Shown in pieces: positions 48,088-59,852 of a stretch of DNA of 64,000 nt. Origin of the DNA: Paludibacteraceae bacterium (GTDB lineage Bacteria; Bacteroidota; Bacteroidia; Bacteroidales; Paludibacteraceae); contig JALNVE010000002.1 in NCBI GenBank assembly GCA_023227695.1, positions 13,767 to 77,766 on the forward strand. The letters are read 5' to 3'. The first letter of the stretch is position 1; each line of letters starts with the position of its first letter. The position numbers were made by a program, and so were the translations under genes. A model generated the notes under the pieces. It was not told the DNA's origin, searched no databases, and was given only the letters and a program-made list of their open reading frames with translations.

Positions 48088-48525
48088 ATGGACGCTATTA
48101 CAAAAATTAAAGGAGTCGTCCTCGAAGGCCTGTGTGAAAAGGCTTTATTGGGCATCCTTGTTGAAAGAAGAAAAGAAGAACTGGAAAAAGTTCTTGAATG
48201 TCAAACAGAATTCAAGGAAGAAATTCAAAGATGGAATCAAAGCATCTGGGTTAGGCTATTCAAAAGAGAAACCAAGAGAGATGTGTATGACATCATGGAT
48301 AACGTCCGTGCCGAAATGGATAGGCGTTTTCAGAATGAAAAGACAGATGAAGACAGATTCATAAGTATAAGATATAGAAAAGAAAGTTATTATGGGGTGT
48401 CTTCGGGATTGGAAAATAGAATAAAACGCTATGTGGCTATGGGGAAAGAGTTGCCAGACACCGAAATTGAAATTGAAACAGATGTGCTTGGCAGCATTTG
48501 CGCAGAAGCGCAGAAAGGTCAGTGA
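48088..48525 (+). CDS. hypothetical protein
   Basis: ORF track. Confidence 0.45.
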   Translation: MDAITKIKGVVLEGLCEKALLGILVERRKEELEKVLECQTEFKEEIQRWNQSIWVRLFKRETKRDVYDIMDNVRAEMDRRFQNEKTDEDRFISIRYRKESYYGVSSGLENRIKRYVAMGKELPDTEIEIETDVLGSICAEAQKGQ

Positions 48526-48575
48526 TGATGAAGGTATTGATTACAAGCGGTGGAACACGAATAGCGATTGATTAA
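48525..48575 (+). pseudogene. 16-codon remnant of the 5' end of coaB
   Basis: ATGATGAAGGTATTGATTACAAGCGGTGGAACACGAATAGCGATTGATTAA encodes MMKVLITSGGTRIAID*. This matches the first 15 aa of the intact gene at 50134 (MRVLISSGGTKIGLD) and overlaps the upstream stop codon. Confidence 0.55.
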
Positions 48576-48601
48576 TGTAAATTAATTTTGATAATGATTT
48601 C

Positions 48602-50026
48602 ATGAGTGGAGGTCTCATGAAGCTTATCATAAAAAAACAGACAATTAATGTTGAAAATTTTCAGATTTTCTTTGAATTGGTTAAAGGACATAAAATAATC
48701 CCCGATCTAAAGATGCCAACAAAGGAGCTTGAATCATTCTGGGAAAACCATCTAAAAGATATTAGAATCACGAAGACTAAGCTCAGAAGATGTCTATGTG
48801 TAAATGTTTATTTTATTAGATCTCACTTGGTGGTTAAGTATTGGATAAATAAAGGATGGACAGAAGAAGAAGCAAAAGAGAAGATATCCCAATTACAAAG
48901 AAACAATTCGGAAGCATCTATTGATCATTGGGTAAAATTAGGACTAAACCGCCAAGATGCGGAAGAAAAGGTTAAGCAATCCCAATCCATAAGGGGTCTC
49001 TTTTTATCAAAAAAATTAAAAGAAAATCATCAGTTTAGAAGAGAGTTTTCTCCATCGAATATTGAATTTTGGCTAAAAAGGGGACAGGGCGAAAATGAAT
49101 CCTGCTTATCGGTGGAAGAGTTTAACAAAAGTAAGTTCAAAAATAACAAGGAAAGCTATATACGGTTATATGGAGAAGAAAAGGGTATGGCTGTTTGGGA
49201 TCGTTTTGTCAATGGCAAGTCAAATGAAAACTTAATCCGAAGGTTCGGGCCTGAAATTGGTGAGCAGAAGATAAAGAGCAGAAATAGCAGGTTGGCCGAT
49301 CATAGGGGGAGAGAAGGTTTTGTTAGACGCTATGGAGAAGAAATAGGAGAGCAGAAATATGAAGAGCTTTTAGAAAAACAAAAGAAAATGGGGGATAAGG
49401 ACTGGTACTTGAAGAAATTCGGGGATGTGGAAGGGTTGAGGTTATATACCGATAAATGTAAGTCTATAAAAGAATCACACTCTCTCGAATATATTAAGAT
49501 GAAATATGGAGAAGAAGATGGGATCAAGCGATTCTATAAATGGAGAGAGGATATGGTCGTAAAGAGGGGGAGGGCGTCTAAAGCCTCTCTTCTCTATTTT
49601 TTAAAGCTATATAAAATTTTGAGAAAGGGATACAAAATAGCCAGAAAAGATATTTTCCTAGGAATATCCGGCTCACATGAATGGTTTATTCTCAGTGATG
49701 GAAGATTCTATTTATTCGATTTTGTTATTCGTAGCAAGAAGATAATAATTGAATTCAACGGAGCACATGTTCATCCCAAGGAGGATAGGAAAGAGGAAAA
49801 TGGGTATTGGGAGAACTGGAGACACCCTTGGTCTAAAGAGGGGGCGGAAGAAGTGTTGATGAAAGAAAAACGTAAAACTAAATTAGCTAAGGATTTAGGA
49901 TACTCTATCTATACCCTGTGGAGCGATCTATCTTTCGAGGAAAATTGGGAAATTATAAACAAAATGATTCTTGAAAATTTTATCCTAAATTTACCCAACC
50001 CTATTGACAATAATCTAATCCTATGA
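48602..50026 (+). CDS. free-standing homing-endonuclease-like protein (Vsr/DUF559-like PD-(D/E)XK), paralog of 5005-6105
   Basis: The C-terminus FDFVIRSKKIIIEFNGAHVH...GYSIYTLWSD parallels FDFVIEDIKKVIEFNGDKFH...GYEFLIIWESD in the other copy. Both share internal YG-E-E-x-G-x-x-K/Y repeats. Confidence 0.6.
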   Translation: MSGGLMKLIIKKQTINVENFQIFFELVKGHKIIPDLKMPTKELESFWENHLKDIRITKTKLRRCLCVNVYFIRSHLVVKYWINKGWTEEEAKEKISQLQRNNSEASIDHWVKLGLNRQDAEEKVKQSQSIRGLFLSKKLKENHQFRREFSPSNIEFWLKRGQGENESCLSVEEFNKSKFKNNKESYIRLYGEEKGMAVWDRFVNGKSNENLIRRFGPEIGEQKIKSRNSRLADHRGREGFVRRYGEEIGEQKYEELLEKQKKMGDKDWYLKKFGDVEGLRLYTDKCKSIKESHSLEYIKMKYGEEDGIKRFYKWREDMVVKRGRASKASLLYFLKLYKILRKGYKIARKDIFLGISGSHEWFILSDGRFYLFDFVIRSKKIIIEFNGAHVHPKEDRKEENGYWENWRHPWSKEGAEEVLMKEKRKTKLAKDLGYSIYTLWSDLSFEENWEIINKMILENFILNLPNPIDNNLIL

Positions 50027-50032
50027 TATCTT
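50004..50032 (+). promoter_or_regulatory. sigma-70-type promoter (TTGACA-17-TATCTT)
   Basis: The -35 is at 50004-50009 and the -10 at 50027-50032. It spans the stop of the endonuclease ORF and lies upstream of coaB. Confidence 0.5.
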
Positions 50033-50133
50033 TTTCGCCAAACAAAGAAGTGAAATGGTTATTACTTCGATAAGGAGTTTTATACAAAGACGGATTCAAG
50101 TTTCGACAATTCATAAGAAAGGTGGTTTCATTT

Positions 50134-50853
50134 ATGAGGGTTTTAATAAGTAGCGGGGGCACGAAGATTGGGTTGGATTTGGTCAGACATATCGGCAACA
50201 TGAGCAATGGAACCCTTGGAAGCCGTCTAGGAAGAGACTTCTTAAAGATTGCCGATGAGGTTATTTTCTTCAGGGCAGAAAAATCAAAGTCTCCGATGAT
50301 CGCTGAAGTGAATTTCGCTAATTCCAACCTTGAAGCCAATACCAAGAATTTTGAACAGGCGAAAGCCAACTGGGAACAAACTGGCTATAAATATCACGAA
50401 CATACTTACAAGTCTTTTGAAGACTATCAGAGTGGTTTGGAAAATCTGATCACGCTCTATAAGCCCGATATCATTATTCTTGCCGCCGCTGTCAGTGATT
50501 ATGCACCTGAAACCGTTGTGCAGGGGAAGATTAGGTCAAAAGGAAATTTGGACATTCATCTGGTACCTCTGCCAAAGGTCATTTCAAAAGTCAGGGATTG
50601 GGCAGGAGATAAAGCTACAATTGTCGGCTTTAAGCTCCTTGTAGATGTTGATAAACAAGAACTGATTGATAGCGCCAAGAAAAGTTTGGTTGAAAATAAA
50701 CTCGATTTGGTATGTGCCAACGACTTGCGGAGCATCCTTAATGGAAACCATCTGATTCATCTTGTCGATTCTTCAGACATTGTTAAGGATATTGATGCCC
50801 ATTCTCTTGCTAGAATAATTGAATCTCATATTTCAACAAAAGGGAAACAATGA
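50134..50853 (+). CDS. coaB: phosphopantothenate-cysteine ligase (CoaB)-like protein
   Basis: VLISSGGTKIGLDLVRHIGNMSNGTLGSRLG matches the CoaB/DFP C-terminal-domain start (ITAGGT-x-E-x-ID-x-VR-x-I-x-N-x-SSG). AAAVSDY and GFKLL follow later. I moved the start to ATG 50134 behind RBS AAAGGTGG. Confidence 0.65.
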   Translation: MRVLISSGGTKIGLDLVRHIGNMSNGTLGSRLGRDFLKIADEVIFFRAEKSKSPMIAEVNFANSNLEANTKNFEQAKANWEQTGYKYHEHTYKSFEDYQSGLENLITLYKPDIIILAAAVSDYAPETVVQGKIRSKGNLDIHLVPLPKVISKVRDWAGDKATIVGFKLLVDVDKQELIDSAKKSLVENKLDLVCANDLRSILNGNHLIHLVDSSDIVKDIDAHSLARIIESHISTKGKQ

Positions 50854-51947
50854 ATAAGAACAAACTTTGTGTTGTTTTTACTGGAACTGTAGCTTCAACG
50901 CTGGCACCTAAAATATGTGAAGCATTCCAAAATGATTTTGAAGTAACAACGGTCTTTACAAAAAAGGCTCTATACTTTTACAACCCATTTAGATCTATGA
51001 ATTCAGAAACTCCTTTTTGTGATTCTTACTTGGATGATGAAACTGAATGGAAAGGTTTGCCAGTAGGCGGGTATGTGAAGCAACAGGAAATTCCCCATGT
51101 TGACCTAGCGACACAGAACGATGTCTTATTGATTATCGCTAGTGCTGATTTTCTTGCTAAGATGACAAACGGAATCTGTGATGACTTGGCATCCAGCCTG
51201 TATCGGGCTTGGAGACGGCATAGACCAGTTATTGTTGCACCGGCGATGAATTCCTATATGTGGAATCATCCCGTTACACAGGAGCATCTGAATACACTTA
51301 AAAGTTGGAATGTAAATATTGTTTATCCTCAAGAAAAAATGCTTGCTTGTGGAGAGGTGGGAATGGGTGCCCTAGCGGAAATCCAGTTCATCAAAGAAAT
51401 TGTAGATAAATCAATAAAACCTATTTTCCCTCTTGATATTAATGATTGCAGTGGAATTCCGGTCGGAAAAGATCATCCCGGTTCATTCCTTGGTAAAAGG
51501 AAGTTTGCTCCACATACAGGAGTTGATTTGTATTGCAATAATTCGACTCCTGTTTTCTGCATGGCTCCTGGTGTCGTTGTCAGTGTCGAAGACTTTACAG
51601 GAACAGGAGATAATTCAACATGGTGGGAAGACACAAAATGCGTCTTGATTCGACATAGTTTCGGGACGGTTTGTTATGGAGAAATAGAACCGGCATTTGG
51701 GATTAAAGAGGGATTAGAAGTTTCTTGTGGTTCTATTATCGGAAATGTTAAGAGAGTTTTGAAACCCGGAAAAGAACGTCCAGATATTCCAGGTCACAAA
51801 ACCTCGATGCTTCACATCGAACTGTATCCTGTGGAACAAAAGACGGCTAGTAAGAGCTATGAACAGGACAAAGAAGTTCTAAGAAATCCGACAGATATGC
51901 TTATTAAGGCATGGGGAGAAAATCCTGTAATCTTAACTAAGGAGTAA
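50850..51947 (+). CDS. coaC: fusion: phosphopantothenoylcysteine decarboxylase-type flavoprotein (CoaC/HFCD) + M23 (LytM) peptidase-like domain
   Basis: The N-terminal ~185 aa read LCVVFTGTVAS...IIASADFLAKMTNGICDDLASS...VIVAPAMNSYMWNHPVTQEHL...CGEVGMGAL, the flavoprotein pattern. The C-terminal ~170 aa read HTGVDLYCNNSTPVFCMAPGVVVSV...LIRHSFGTVCYGEI...VSCGSIIGNV...SMLHIELY, the M23 HxxxD...HxH-like pattern. Confidence 0.65.
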   Translation: MNKNKLCVVFTGTVASTLAPKICEAFQNDFEVTTVFTKKALYFYNPFRSMNSETPFCDSYLDDETEWKGLPVGGYVKQQEIPHVDLATQNDVLLIIASADFLAKMTNGICDDLASSLYRAWRRHRPVIVAPAMNSYMWNHPVTQEHLNTLKSWNVNIVYPQEKMLACGEVGMGALAEIQFIKEIVDKSIKPIFPLDINDCSGIPVGKDHPGSFLGKRKFAPHTGVDLYCNNSTPVFCMAPGVVVSVEDFTGTGDNSTWWEDTKCVLIRHSFGTVCYGEIEPAFGIKEGLEVSCGSIIGNVKRVLKPGKERPDIPGHKTSMLHIELYPVEQKTASKSYEQDKEVLRNPTDMLIKAWGENPVILTKE

Positions 51948-52530: not shown

Positions 52531-52779
52531 ATGAATATTTTTGATTGGTTTAAGAATCTGAACAAACCGGAAGAAGTTAAGATTTGTGCAAAATGCAATT
52601 GGTATCGTCTTCAGGGTACCCGACTAAATTGCGGTAATCCCGAATATCTTGAAAGGAATATCATTACCGGGGAGCTTCGCGAAGCTCCTTCTTGTAGTGA
52701 AATGAGGGCTACGGCCCGGCGTTGTGGATATACAGGAAAAGGATTTAGCCCTATTGACAAGACCGAAGAAAAGGAGTAA
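52531..52779 (+). CDS. hypothetical Cys-rich protein
   Basis: ORF track. It has CAKCNWY...CGNPEY...CSEM...CGY cysteines. Confidence 0.45.
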   Translation: MNIFDWFKNLNKPEEVKICAKCNWYRLQGTRLNCGNPEYLERNIITGELREAPSCSEMRATARRCGYTGKGFSPIDKTEEKE

Positions 52780-53103: not shown

Positions 53104-53253
53104 ATGAATGGTATGAATAAGATTCAGAAGCAGTTGGAATACGCAGGTTATGACAATGCAGTTGCAATCGCTACCAATGCGGAAATCGCAGCGGGTGCGG
53201 CTTGCGGTCAGCTTGCTATTATCAACAACCGTACAGATGAACGTGGTGCGTAA
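53104..53253 (+). CDS. small protein (49 aa)
   Basis: It has a consensus-like promoter and the RBS AAAGGAGGAAA. My translation is MNGMNKIQKQLEYAGYDNAVAIATNAEIAAGAACGQLAIINNRTDERGA*. It is below the ORF-track size cut-off. Confidence 0.4.
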   Translation: MNGMNKIQKQLEYAGYDNAVAIATNAEIAAGAACGQLAIINNRTDERGA

Positions 53254-55088: not shown

Positions 55089-56516
55089 ATGAAAATAAAT
55101 GGTGGCTTTTTAGTTGAATTGGGCCTGAAACCCTGTAAGACGTTTGGGGAACTTTTGAAACTATTCAATACTAGTGGAGATTATACCGAACAGGGAATCC
55201 GTCACGTTGTAGAAGGATTCATTAATCTTAAACTTCCCAAGAACATCAATACGATTCACGGGGATTCCCCGGCTTGTTTGAATCTGTTGAAAATCTATTT
55301 TGACTACGAAACGGAACACAAGAAGGCCGATATCAAATTGCGAAACGAAAACCTTCCCTTTAACATCTTCGGTGCTGAAAACATTGAACAGGGAGCAGTT
55401 GATCAGATGATTACCGCTATGCGGCTCCCTATCGCCGTTGCGGGGGTTCTAGTTCCTGATTCACATCAGGGTTACAATTTGCCGATTGGAGGAATCTTGG
55501 CGACAGAGAATCAAGTTATTCCTAATGCCGTAGGAGTGGATATTTCCTGTAGTATGAAAATGTCAGTGTTCGAAGAAGTAAGCTTCCCAGAGAAGAACAA
55601 TGCTTTTAGAATGGAACTGAAAGAATCTTTGGTAAAACAGACGTGTTTCGGTGTCGGTCTAAATGAAAAGAAAGGTCTGATCCATTGCGGGTTCGAAAGC
55701 ATCGTGCTTGAAAATAATCTATGGAATGATATCCCGATGTTGAAGAAATACAACATTCGGAAACTTGCAGAGAATCAAATCGGAACATCTGGGAGCGGTA
55801 ATCACTTCGTTTTCTTTGGGAATCTAGATTTCAAAGACGGAACACCAGCAAGACTAGCCTTGCTTAGTCATAGCGGTAGCCGTGGTGTCGGATATAAGAT
55901 CGCCAAACTTTACCATGACCTTGCTTGTAAGAACTTTGACAACAAAGGCTTTCAGGGTTGGGCATGGCTTGATTTGGATACCGACAACGGAAAAGAATAT
56001 TGGGCGGCGATGAATCTCTGTGCTGATTTTGCCCGTATCAGTCACGATATGATTCATTATCGTATCAATAAGTTCTTGGGATTGGAACCTAGCTTTACGG
56101 CCTTTACTAACCACAATATTGCCTATCGCGAAACGCACATTATTAATGGTAAGGAAATGGATTTGGTTGTCCATCGCAAAGGCGCTGTTCGTGCTTTCAA
56201 GGATGAAATCGGAATCATAGCGGGAGACATGGTTCATGATAGTTTTATCGTAAAAGGAAAAGGGAACGAATCTAGTCTTTGTTCTTGTTCTCATGGGGCT
56301 GGAAGAGTTATGAGTCGTCAATCTGCGAAAGAAAAATTTACTCATAAACAAATGGAAAACATATTAAACGAATTCGGTGTGGAATTGTTAGGTGGGGGAA
56401 TTGATGAATCACCAATGGCATACAAAGATGTTTACGGTGTAATAGATAGTCAAAAAGATTTAGTTGAAATTATCGGAACCTTTTCACCTAAAATTGTAAA
56501 AATGGCAGAACAATAA
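55089..56516 (+). CDS. rtcB: RNA 3'-phosphate/2',3'-cyclic phosphate-5'-OH ligase RtcB
   Basis: RtcB motifs appear in order: PDSHQGYNLPIGG, GVDISCSM, TSGSGNHF, HSGSRGVG, CSCSHGAGR, and the C-terminal MAYKDV...P. Confidence 0.9.
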   Translation: MKINGGFLVELGLKPCKTFGELLKLFNTSGDYTEQGIRHVVEGFINLKLPKNINTIHGDSPACLNLLKIYFDYETEHKKADIKLRNENLPFNIFGAENIEQGAVDQMITAMRLPIAVAGVLVPDSHQGYNLPIGGILATENQVIPNAVGVDISCSMKMSVFEEVSFPEKNNAFRMELKESLVKQTCFGVGLNEKKGLIHCGFESIVLENNLWNDIPMLKKYNIRKLAENQIGTSGSGNHFVFFGNLDFKDGTPARLALLSHSGSRGVGYKIAKLYHDLACKNFDNKGFQGWAWLDLDTDNGKEYWAAMNLCADFARISHDMIHYRINKFLGLEPSFTAFTNHNIAYRETHIINGKEMDLVVHRKGAVRAFKDEIGIIAGDMVHDSFIVKGKGNESSLCSCSHGAGRVMSRQSAKEKFTHKQMENILNEFGVELLGGGIDESPMAYKDVYGVIDSQKDLVEIIGTFSPKIVKMAEQ

Positions 56517-56584
56517 CGAATCGTGTTCTTGGGTAAGGTATTTTTTATTAGATATTCCTTTTATAAGATAACAAGAGGTTACTT

Positions 56585-57547
56585 ATGAAATGGATTGTTT
56601 ATGTCGCAACAAACAAAATAAATGGAAAGAAATACGTTGGTCAAACAAAAGTCGGAATTGAAAAAAGGAAAGCCAGTCATCTTGCTGGTTCTCTATATGG
56701 TGATCCCTATGCTTTTGCAAATGCTATAAGAAAATACGGAATAAATTCATTCTTTTGGGAGATTTTAGTTGAAGATATAGGAACTCAAGAAGAACTAGAT
56801 AGAATAGAAATTGAAAAAATAAAAGAATTAAAAACATTAGTCCCTTTTGGTTACAATATATCAATGGGAGGTGGAGGGGGCGATACTTTTGAAAATAATC
56901 CAAGGAAAGAAGAGATAAGAGAGCATCTCCGTATTATTAATACAGGAAAGAAACTTTCACAAGAAACGAAACTTAAAATGAGTATTTCAAGAAAAGGAAA
57001 TAAAAATTCACTAGGAACAAAGCGTTCTGAAGAAACTAAGAGAAAGACATCTGAAACGATGAAGAAAAGATGGGAAGAGGGTTTGCCATCTCTACATGGG
57101 CACCCAATGTCGGAGACTACGAGAAAAAAGTTATCTGATCATTTTAAGGGAAGAATCGTTTCGGATGAAACGAGAAAAAAAATGTCTCTTTCTCAAAAAG
57201 GCAAGAAAGTTTCGGATGAGACAAGAGAGAAAATAAGAAATTCTAAAATTGGGAAAAAGCATTCTAAAGAATTTTGTAAAGCAACATCTGAGAGAACGAA
57301 AGGTGCTAAAAACCCATTTTGGGGAAAGAAACATACACTTGAATCTAAACAAAGGAAATTAACAGTAGAGATGGTTAAGAAGATTAAACACTCATTAATT
57401 AAAAAACCAGATGGAATGACTCTTAAATGGCTGTGTAAAACCCTATCTGAAGAATATGGGGTTGGAACGAGTGCTATTATGAAAATTAAAACGGGGGAAA
57501 CTTGGTCGGACGTTTATATAGAAGAGGAAAATTATGAAAACAAATAA
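56585..57547 (+). CDS. GIY-YIG homing endonuclease with NUMOD3-type repeats
   Basis: WIVYVATNKINGKKYVGQT...KRKASH...KYGINSFFWEIL...GYNISMGGGG is followed by repeated G-K-K-x-S-x-E-T-K/R-x-K-M-S motifs. Confidence 0.8.
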   Translation: MKWIVYVATNKINGKKYVGQTKVGIEKRKASHLAGSLYGDPYAFANAIRKYGINSFFWEILVEDIGTQEELDRIEIEKIKELKTLVPFGYNISMGGGGGDTFENNPRKEEIREHLRIINTGKKLSQETKLKMSISRKGNKNSLGTKRSEETKRKTSETMKKRWEEGLPSLHGHPMSETTRKKLSDHFKGRIVSDETRKKMSLSQKGKKVSDETREKIRNSKIGKKHSKEFCKATSERTKGAKNPFWGKKHTLESKQRKLTVEMVKKIKHSLIKKPDGMTLKWLCKTLSEEYGVGTSAIMKIKTGETWSDVYIEEENYENK

Positions 57548-58964: not shown

Positions 58965-59852
58965 ATGAAAATTCAAAGTTTAAGCATTTGCGTACCTCTT
59001 CCAGAAGGGGTCAATCGTTGTACTAACGCCTGTAGATTCTGCGTGTCGAAGATGCATCGAGAAGAATATCCCAGCCTTCATTCCGGAACACCTTTTCAAG
59101 ATGAGAAATATAAAGATGAATTCCGCAAGCGCCTTGAATTTTCTAGGGATAACGGTTGTAATACGGTTATGATTACGGGTGAAAATGAACCACAGCAGAA
59201 CATGCCGTTCATCGATATGTTTTCACAAATCAACAAGAAATTACCTTCCAGTTTTAAATGGATTGAGATGCAAACGACAGGCGCGGGATTAGACAGAAAT
59301 CATCTTTTGTTTTTGCAAGATTATGGTGTTGTGACGATTTCTCTTTCCCTTTCGAATCTTTATTCTGAACAGAATGCCGAAATCAATTGTACACCGAAAC
59401 ACTTGAAAGTAAATATTGAAGATTTGATTTCTGAAATCAGGTCTTTGAATTTCAATCTTCGTCTTAGTCTGAATATGAATCAAACCATTCTTAAGGACTT
59501 TCAAGAAGACCACCAAATCATGTTTGAGAGAATCAATTTCTTACAACCGGATCAGGTAACTTTCAGAAAACTCTACGCTCGTCCTGGAACACAGCAAGCA
59601 AAATGGGTAGAAAAAGAAGCGACAAAAGAATCTGAGTTGAAAAGGCTTGAAGATTTTATCAAGGGAAGTGGACGGCTTATTAATATTTTGGAGTATGGAC
59701 AACTTCAATATAGTTTGGACGGAATCAGTTACGTTGTTGATAATGATTGCATGGCGAAAGATCAAAAGTCCGGCGTCTATAAATATTTGATTCTTCGTCC
59801 TAATATGAAACTCTACTCACAATGGGATATACCTTCAAGTCTGGTTTTTTAA
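58965..59852 (+). CDS. radical SAM enzyme
   Basis: It has an N-terminal CTNACRFC (CxxxCxxC) cluster motif followed by TVMITGENEPQQ. The subfamily is not assignable by eye. Confidence 0.6.
   Translation: MKIQSLSICVPLPEGVNRCTNACRFCVSKMHREEYPSLHSGTPFQDEKYKDEFRKRLEFSRDNGCNTVMITGENEPQQNMPFIDMFSQINKKLPSSFKWIEMQTTGAGLDRNHLLFLQDYGVVTISLSLSNLYSEQNAEINCTPKHLKVNIEDLISEIRSLNFNLRLSLNMNQTILKDFQEDHQIMFERINFLQPDQVTFRKLYARPGTQQAKWVEKEATKESELKRLEDFIKGSGRLINILEYGQLQYSLDGISYVVDNDCMAKDQKSGVYKYLILRPNMKLYSQWDIPSSLVF

Follow-up and report, generated by a model that had tools for sequence, protein, structure and literature searches.

The window, a 64,000-nucleotide stretch of a Paludibacteraceae assembly (contig JALNVE010000002.1, positions 13,767 to 77,766), encodes in two overlapping genes a homologue of the coenzyme A (CoA) enzyme CoaB and a fusion protein, in which a CoaC-type flavoprotein domain is followed by a domain of the M23/LytM fold, here called M. 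The same three modules recur together in viral loci, fused or separate and in changing order. We consider it probable that they form a conserved jumbo-phage cassette, in which CoaB and CoaC would do the middle steps of CoA synthesis and M would be an accessory to them. In this cassette CoaB would join 4'-phosphopantothenate and cysteine to 4'-phosphopantothenoylcysteine (PPC) and CoaC would decarboxylate PPC to 4'-phosphopantetheine, both acting as phage auxiliary metabolic genes during infection. M would be a zinc-keeping module that assists the CoaB/CoaC step and not a peptidoglycan peptidase. The two genes and the CoaC part of the fusion are laid out as follows:

50134..50853, + strand: coaB, homologue of monofunctional PPC synthetase (phosphopantothenate-cysteine ligase), 239 aa (Pfam DFP, 2.7e-27)
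50850-51947, + strand: fusion open reading frame (ORF) CoaC-M, 365 aa, overlapping coaB by ATGA
50850..51416, + strand: CoaC domain, residues 1-189, putative Hal3/PPCDC-type PPC decarboxylase dependent on flavin mononucleotide (Pfam, PDB, Foldseek)
51096-51098, + strand: predicted catalytic His83, aligned to AtHAL3a His90
51249-51251, + strand: Asn134 of PAMN, aligned to AtHAL3a Asn142
51348-51350, + strand: predicted clamp Cys167 of LACG, aligned to AtHAL3a Cys175

The ORFs were found as the original prediction had described them, i. e. separate CoaB-like and CoaC-like genes with an overlap of 4 nt. It had also proposed a flavoprotein half and an M23 half of the fusion protein, and Pfam recognized both: residues 5-190 match Flavoprotein (PF02441) at 4.8e-21, and residues 221-303 match Peptidase_M23 with 29.1 bits at a cut-off of 28.7. 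In PDB searches the CoaC domain matched AtHAL3a (1.6e-28) and human PPCDC (1.1e-24) best, and mycobacterial CoaBC (3.9e-11), EpiD (1e-10) and MrsD (4e-4) more weakly. His83, Asn134 and Cys167 are aligned to their counterparts in 1e20 and 1mvl, and 29 family members share H83, N134, M137, C167, G171 and G173 without exception. The AlphaFold2 (AF2) model of the full-length fusion protein has a mean per-residue confidence (pLDDT) of 92.9 and a predicted TM-score (pTM) of 0.86. With Foldseek its CoaC domain matched 1mvn at E 1.1e-18, with a TM of 0.93 on the target. The clamp Cys of PPC decarboxylases completes the reduction step and is, to our knowledge, absent from LanD enzymes. By sequence comparison the CoaC domain is thus of the Hal3/PPCDC type and much further from EpiD and MrsD.

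This bears on the substrate that the original prediction had put forward. It had suggested, as a possibility, a peptide or a cell-wall-linked compound as the substrate of the pair, in the manner of EpiD and MrsD; the HFCD flavoprotein would then decarboxylate the C-terminal Cys of a peptide, and the M23 domain would be catalytically active as a peptidase, with a peptide or the cell wall as its target. HFCD enzymes do include the LanD decarboxylases, which are among the Foldseek matches to CoaC, and the M23 zinc ligands are present. However, the LanD matches are at least 18 orders of magnitude weaker than those to PPC decarboxylases, and the clamp Cys is conserved together with the AtHAL3a loop KxLACGDxGxGA. 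Both catalytic M23 His are absent, and no signal peptide was seen by eye. CoaB is the sole conserved partner, and across 67 viral loci neither a precursor-like ORF nor a radical SAM gene is conserved beside CoaB/CoaC; a conserved small ORF nearby was not found either. We therefore regard a peptide or cell-wall substrate as very improbable. The small Cys-containing ORFs at 52531-52779 and 53104-53253 and the radical SAM gene at 58965, which had been pointed out as neighbours, are conserved beside the pair only in the nearest relative, which is syntenic (L001), or not at all; a link of these genes to CoaB/CoaC was therefore rejected.

CoaB was matched over its whole length by 2gk4, the streptococcal monofunctional type (1.3e-18), in addition to the Pfam DFP domain (PF04127); human PPCS matched it at 8e-10. 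Its motifs SGGT, VRxIxNxSxGxxG, AAAVSDY, KIxS, GFKLL and AN align to both 2gk4 and human PPCS. The start ATG at 50134 is preceded by the ribosome-binding site AAAGGTGG; a GTG upstream, at 50122, falls within this site. Judged by these alignments, CoaB and CoaC would be ordinary CoA enzymes. Their activities are inferred, because their scores against the NCBIfam equivalog models, given below, stay well below the cut-offs.

The window lies on C2, an 85-kb contig binned in a 3.24-Mb metagenome-assembled genome (MAG). Its genes between about 38.9 and 62 kb are collinear, one by one and mostly at 58-93% protein identity, with those of a 304-kb viral contig from IMG/VR, which is complete according to CheckV; we conclude that the window is a piece of a jumbo-phage genome. 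This viral contig also encodes a homologue of the fusion protein with 71% identity. Relatives of the window were not found in a DNA-level search of a phage collection. A search of 5.8 billion proteins returned 270 homologues of the fusion protein, and most of the 120 listed contain both Pfam domains, at 33-71% identity and on contigs of up to 622 kb. The GenBank phage set held one full-length relative, encoded by the 735-kb uncultured phage LR756501. A sequencing frameshift that joined two genes, which the original prediction had allowed for, is ruled out by the presence of the same architecture in many independent, divergent sequences. Its remark that no such fusion is known holds for the literature, where our searches found no description of a CoaC-M23 fusion or of a phage CoaBC with M23. 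It does not hold for the sequences themselves: the architecture is not rare but widespread in metagenomic huge phages.

To describe the arrangements, the genes in the 67 viral loci were classified by module (B, CoaB; C, CoaC; M, the M23-like module). In the following lines a comma separates genes and joined letters stand for one protein:

B, CM: 16 of 67 viral loci
CM, B: 8 of 67
CM only: 3 of 67
M, B, C (three separate genes): 10 of 67
C, B, M: 2 of 67
C, M, B: 1 of 67
B, C, M: 1 of 67
B, C without M: 12 of 67
C alone: 10 of 67

CoaB is the only neighbour conserved across these loci, and in most of them coaB directly adjoins the CoaC gene. In L046, an example of the three-gene version, the genes overlap one another. 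Further forms are a protein of 565 aa that is one M-CoaC-CoaB chain (P0231) and a fusion in the reversed order M-CoaC (P0303). Fusion, fission and permutation are thus found among proteins that are only 30-45% identical; this is strong evidence that the modules work together. We know of no organism in which the well-understood enzymes CoaB and CoaC have a third conserved partner.

The M domain itself has the following predicted features:

51417..51947, + strand: M domain, residues 190-365, M23/LytM fold, predicted to bind zinc, remodelled active site (Pfam, AF2, alignments)
51513-51515, + strand: His222, predicted zinc ligand (HxxxD motif alignment)
51525-51527, + strand: Asp226, predicted zinc ligand (HxxxD motif alignment)
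51681-51683, + strand: Glu278, in place of the His of YxH (profile alignment)
51807-51809, + strand: Met320, in place of the first His of HxH (profile alignment)
51813-51815, + strand: His322, predicted zinc ligand, last His of HxH

Modelled alone with 42 homologues, M reached a pLDDT of 97.6. Structure alignment of this model (VIA-align) returned the expected M23 fold, with Z 14.8 for StM23 (9gy1), 14.3 for EnvC, 14.2 for lysostaphin (4lxc) and 13.7 for LECT2. In total 27 chains had a Z of at least 8, whereas the next fold class, PTS EIIA, reached only about 6. In profile alignments with zoocin A, StM23 and LysTt72, HTGVD falls on HxxxD, YGE on YAH/YGH and sMLH on SHLH. The original prediction had recognized an M23/LytM pattern in HTGVDL and MLHIELY. 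The fold, HTGVD and MLHIE are indeed present, but MLHIE keeps only the zinc-ligand His of HxH. The metal ligands that it had named as decisive are kept on alignment: His222, Asp226 and His322 are invariant, as are Glu278 and Met320, in the fused forms, the free forms and the 150 best representatives of the subfamily.

In M23 enzymes two His activate the water molecule, the first His of HxH and a His about 30 residues before it (PMC9662197). Because both are missing, ordinary M23 peptidase chemistry of M is unlikely. A near-invariant Phe stands nine residues before His222, where LECT2 has a Tyr; this position may correspond to that of the oxyanion Tyr reported for lysostaphin. The invariance at the replaced positions, Glu278 and Met320, points to a selected site and not to decay.

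What such a site might do can be narrowed down tentatively. If M is an accessory of CoaB and CoaC, it is possible, though we would not put it above an even chance, that its zinc/Glu278 site acts on a small thiol-amide of the pathway, either by hydrolysis or by zinc-thiolate binding. Candidate ligands would be a cysteine donor, PPC or 4'-phosphopantetheine. A small-molecule role is suggested because the site is under strict selection and because the grooves of M23 folds are suited to chains that are unbranched and glycyl-like, as the beta-alanyl part of pantetheine is. The further proposal that the M23 fold has given rise in M to a new zinc enzyme, with the Glu as general base and 4'-phosphopantetheine or a related thiol-amide as substrate, seems to us unlikely. 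In one form of it M would cleave the beta-alanyl-cysteamine amide, and a cycle of CoaB, CoaC and M would turn cysteine into cysteamine and regenerate phosphopantothenate. In another, M would supply CoaB with cysteine released from a thiol peptide of the host. In cultured jumbo phages the free M proteins would carry out this chemistry together with the CoaBC of the host.

Alternatively, M could be a non-catalytic pseudo-peptidase whose groove serves protein contacts in the manner of EnvC, NlpD, DipM and LECT2, with a zinc ion that is structural only. EnvC docks to amidases and regulates them; similarly, M would dock to phage or host CoaB/CoaC and regulate them, or would assemble the CoaC oligomer with CoaB. 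The replacement of both water-activating His fits this, and EnvC, DipM and LECT2 have fold scores (Z 13.7-14.3) as high as those of active enzymes. The pTM of the full-length model suggests a fixed packing of the two domains, and M, being C-terminal to CoaC, occupies the place that CoaB has in bacterial CoaBC. Where a phage lacks CoaBC, the target of a free M could be the host enzyme. Degenerate M23 folds are known to serve as protein hubs, and zinc is retained in LECT2 although a catalytic His is missing (PMC9662197). Yet EnvC-type factors have lost the zinc ligands, whereas hundreds of divergent M sequences all have the triad, Glu278 and Met320, a pattern more typical of an active or ligand-binding site. 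We consider a non-catalytic role of this kind possible but doubtful.

The occurrence of M outside CoaC shows how far its function is tied to the two enzymes. The M subfamily comprises 536 cluster representatives at E <= 1e-30 and 1367 at E <= 1e-10, and is mostly viral, judging from the taxon labels given automatically to the nearest clusters of the ESM Atlas. Fusion partners were counted in the best 150 representatives, and neighbours in the 80 viral loci that a search with M alone had returned. The recurrent fusion partners are:

CoaC: 24
X1, a domain of 155-185 aa without a family match: 9
X2, an HD-like domain: 4
NUDIX, generic: 3

CoaC therefore accounts for 24 of the 40 extensions that were assigned to recurrent partner families. 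Among the neighbours CoaB was found in 20 of the 80 loci, any other family in at most 5. M is thus an autonomous module with one preferred partner, the CoaB/CoaC step.

Free M proteins with all the invariant residues are encoded by the cultured jumbo phages PA5oct (gp441), XacN1 (ORF423), RAS14, CM1, Astolliot and Milchi; in PA5oct, XacN1, RAS14 and Astolliot the genes sit amid small genes without an assigned function. For PA5oct gp441 the annotation is murein hydrolase, yet mass spectrometry did not detect the protein in the virion (PMC7318152). Its absence from the detected virion proteins fits an intracellular role and is a further point against a cell-wall substrate.

Several of our observations weigh against the proposed cassette or limit it. 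For both enzymes, orthology of function is uncertain: CoaB scores 113.7 bits (1e-32) against PRK06732 and 103.7 bits (1e-29) against coaB_strep, at equivalog cut-offs of 265 and 217.2, and CoaC is far under the cut-offs as well, with 97.4 bits for coaC_strep (cut-off 261.4) and 93 bits for coaBC_dfp (cut-off 219.7). Since both water-activating His, and probably the oxyanion Tyr too, are lost, M resembles protein-binding degenerate M23 folds, LECT2 among them (PMC9662197). CoaE (PF01121) and type III PanK (PF03309) profiles had no match in five huge-phage genomes, and the idea of a complete CoA pathway in huge phages was dropped for this reason. M is commoner alone (50 of the 80 loci) than with CoaB/CoaC (about 24), and its fusions to NUDIX, HD-like and X1 domains show that its function is not tied to CoaC alone. 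Two complete huge-phage genomes (G007 and G008) have CoaB and CoaC without the M subfamily, so M is not obligatory. In the cultured jumbo phages our searches matched the M part of the fusion only, and CoaB had no match there.

Some of these points would also be expected if the fusion were an accident of adjacent phage genes and M an autonomous protein unrelated to CoA, serving for example host takeover or counter-defence: M stands alone in most loci and in the cultured phages, it has other fusion partners, and some huge phages have CoaB and CoaC but do without it. An accident, however, does not explain why CoaB/CoaC is by far the most frequent partner of M, nor why the association persists over at least five gene orders, three kinds of fusion and proteins of such low identity. 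We judge this explanation quite improbable, and the three-module cassette with M as an accessory of CoaB and CoaC remains our preferred interpretation. Of this interpretation the analysis shows what the domains are, which residues are conserved and how the genes are linked; the enzyme activities, the binding of zinc and the role of M are inferred.

The other partners of M were also characterized. In the X1 fusions (P0237, P0229, P0233, P0245, P0286, P0295, P0301 and P0325; alignment A4) M lies behind X1, which has the invariant motifs GG..F...R.SGY, NGG, W.aD..N and SK.N. X1 had no match in Pfam, NCBIfam, PDB profiles or the Atlas, and hhalign of the X1 fusions against the CoaC family aligned the M part only. 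X2 carries the motif NHIxEG...LHPLxQxD and shows only faint HD_4 matches (P0223, P0240 and P0309; alignment A5); it precedes or follows M in a fusion, or has a gene of its own adjacent to that of M (loci L121, L144, L155 and L156). The three NUDIX-M fusions are P0268, P0297 and P0271. One of their NUDIX domains had a weak match to CoA pyrophosphatase, far below the cut-off and too weak to use; these partners are generic.

Another CoA-related gene is found in the same phage lineage. A second contig of the MAG (C38) is collinear with the 304-kb relative, and both encode a protein of about 310-320 aa that is similar to phosphopantetheine adenylyltransferase (PPAT, CoaD), at L075:1479-2405 (-) on C38 and at L074:1527-2492 (+) in the relative. 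Its N-terminal half has GSFNPFHNGH and scores 71-78 bits with TIGR01510 (78 bits for the protein on C38), below the cut-off, and 7e-11 with PDB PPAT. The C-terminal half has a Walker A motif (P-loop), GRSCCGKS, and no family match. By analogy with the eukaryotic CoA synthase this protein may be a fusion of PPAT and a kinase. CTP_transf_like matches are frequent in huge phages, and only one of them is CoaD-like. In the 304-kb relative the CoaD-like gene is adjoined by a homologue of the anti-Gabija protein Gad1 (L074:2968-3888 (+), Pfam 1.9e-57), and a PP-loop ATPase is encoded on the other side. The MAG also has a CoaBC-like gene of its own (G000:C29:2631-2948, L069), which lies in an open frame of 402 aa and over residues 82-188 has only 35% identity with the CoaC of the phage.

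Upstream of coaB the window contains the following elements, of which the endonuclease-like ORF is context and does not belong to the cassette:

48525..48575, + strand: stub of 16 codons, MMKVLITSGGTRIAID and then a stop, resembling the CoaB N-terminus MRVLISSGGTKIGLD (translation compared with CoaB)
48602..50026, + strand: endonuclease-like ORF of 474 aa (faint DUF559/Vsr-like match at 0.013; phrog_22677 at 1.5e-15)
50004..50032, + strand: candidate sigma-70-like promoter, TTGACA-17-TATCTT with TG, about 100 nt 5' of coaB (consensus scan)

Matches to the promoter consensus are not above the chance number in this region, so that the candidate is weak evidence. The endonuclease-like ORF is absent in the syntenic relative L001, where the counterpart of the gene at 48088-48525 abuts coaB. 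The stretch 48525-50026 (+) looks as if a homing endonuclease had inserted where coaB begins and the start of the gene had been duplicated. Downstream of the fusion gene, 55089-57547 (+) encodes a homologue of the RNA ligase RtcB (2.7e-69), longer by about 100 residues at its N-terminus, and then a GIY-YIG/NUMOD3 homing endonuclease. The radical SAM protein at 58965-59852 (+) has only a weak MoaA-like match (35 bits); L001 shares its gene and the two ORFs that follow, but in other loci they show no linkage to CoaB/CoaC.

The M subfamily is large and unstudied, and its members are routinely annotated as murein hydrolases, which is probably wrong. Jumbo phages that encode M, PA5oct and XacN1 among them, are in culture and open to genetic work, so that its role is directly testable. 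If M proved to work in the pantetheine branch as an enzyme or a regulator, this would show how giant phages rewire the cofactor supply of their hosts, and the M23 fold would gain a new chemistry or a new use in regulation.

Compared with known systems, the phage CoaC is closest to AtHAL3a (1e20, 1mvl, 1mvn) and human PPCDC (1qzu). It is 31-34% identical to them and has the same predicted fold, and the catalytic His, the Asn of PXMNXXMW and the clamp Cys in LACGD are aligned and conserved. In contrast to these enzymes it is phage-encoded, adjoins a separate coaB and carries a C-terminal M23-fold domain of 175 residues. With the bifunctional CoaBC/Dfp of bacteria (M. smegmatis 6tgv, E. coli 1u7u) the phage genes share the same two enzymatic modules in genetic coupling. 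Yet the phage CoaB is a separate gene ahead of CoaC, the domain C-terminal to CoaC is M and not CoaB, and CoaC itself is far closer to the eukaryotic type (1.6e-28 against 3.9e-11).

The free M proteins of the Stenotrophomonas phages RAS14 and CM1, the Pseudomonas phages Astolliot, Milchi and PA5oct, and XacN1 belong to the same M subfamily as the fusion. They are mostly about 155-165 aa long (Astolliot about 225 aa) and annotated as 'peptidase M23' or hypothetical; unlike in the window, no CoaB or CoaC domain was found in these phages. Active M23 peptidases (lysostaphin, LytM, zoocin A, StM23) share with M the fold, HxxxD and the final His, but have the His of YxH and HxH where M has YGE and MLH. 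The degenerate LytM factors EnvC, NlpD and DipM have the fold in common with M; whereas EnvC-type factors have lost the zinc ligands, M keeps the triad and only the two water-activating His are replaced. The nearest known state is that of mammalian LECT2 (5b0h), which is without peptidase activity and in which, as in M, an M23 fold (Z 13.7) keeps the zinc ligands although a catalytic His has been lost. LECT2 is a secreted vertebrate cytokine, in contrast to the phage M, which is presumably cytoplasmic and has its own invariant Glu/Met pair as well as FTG and WWxDT motifs; the stretch GxFxxxRxxxxHxGVD is common to both.

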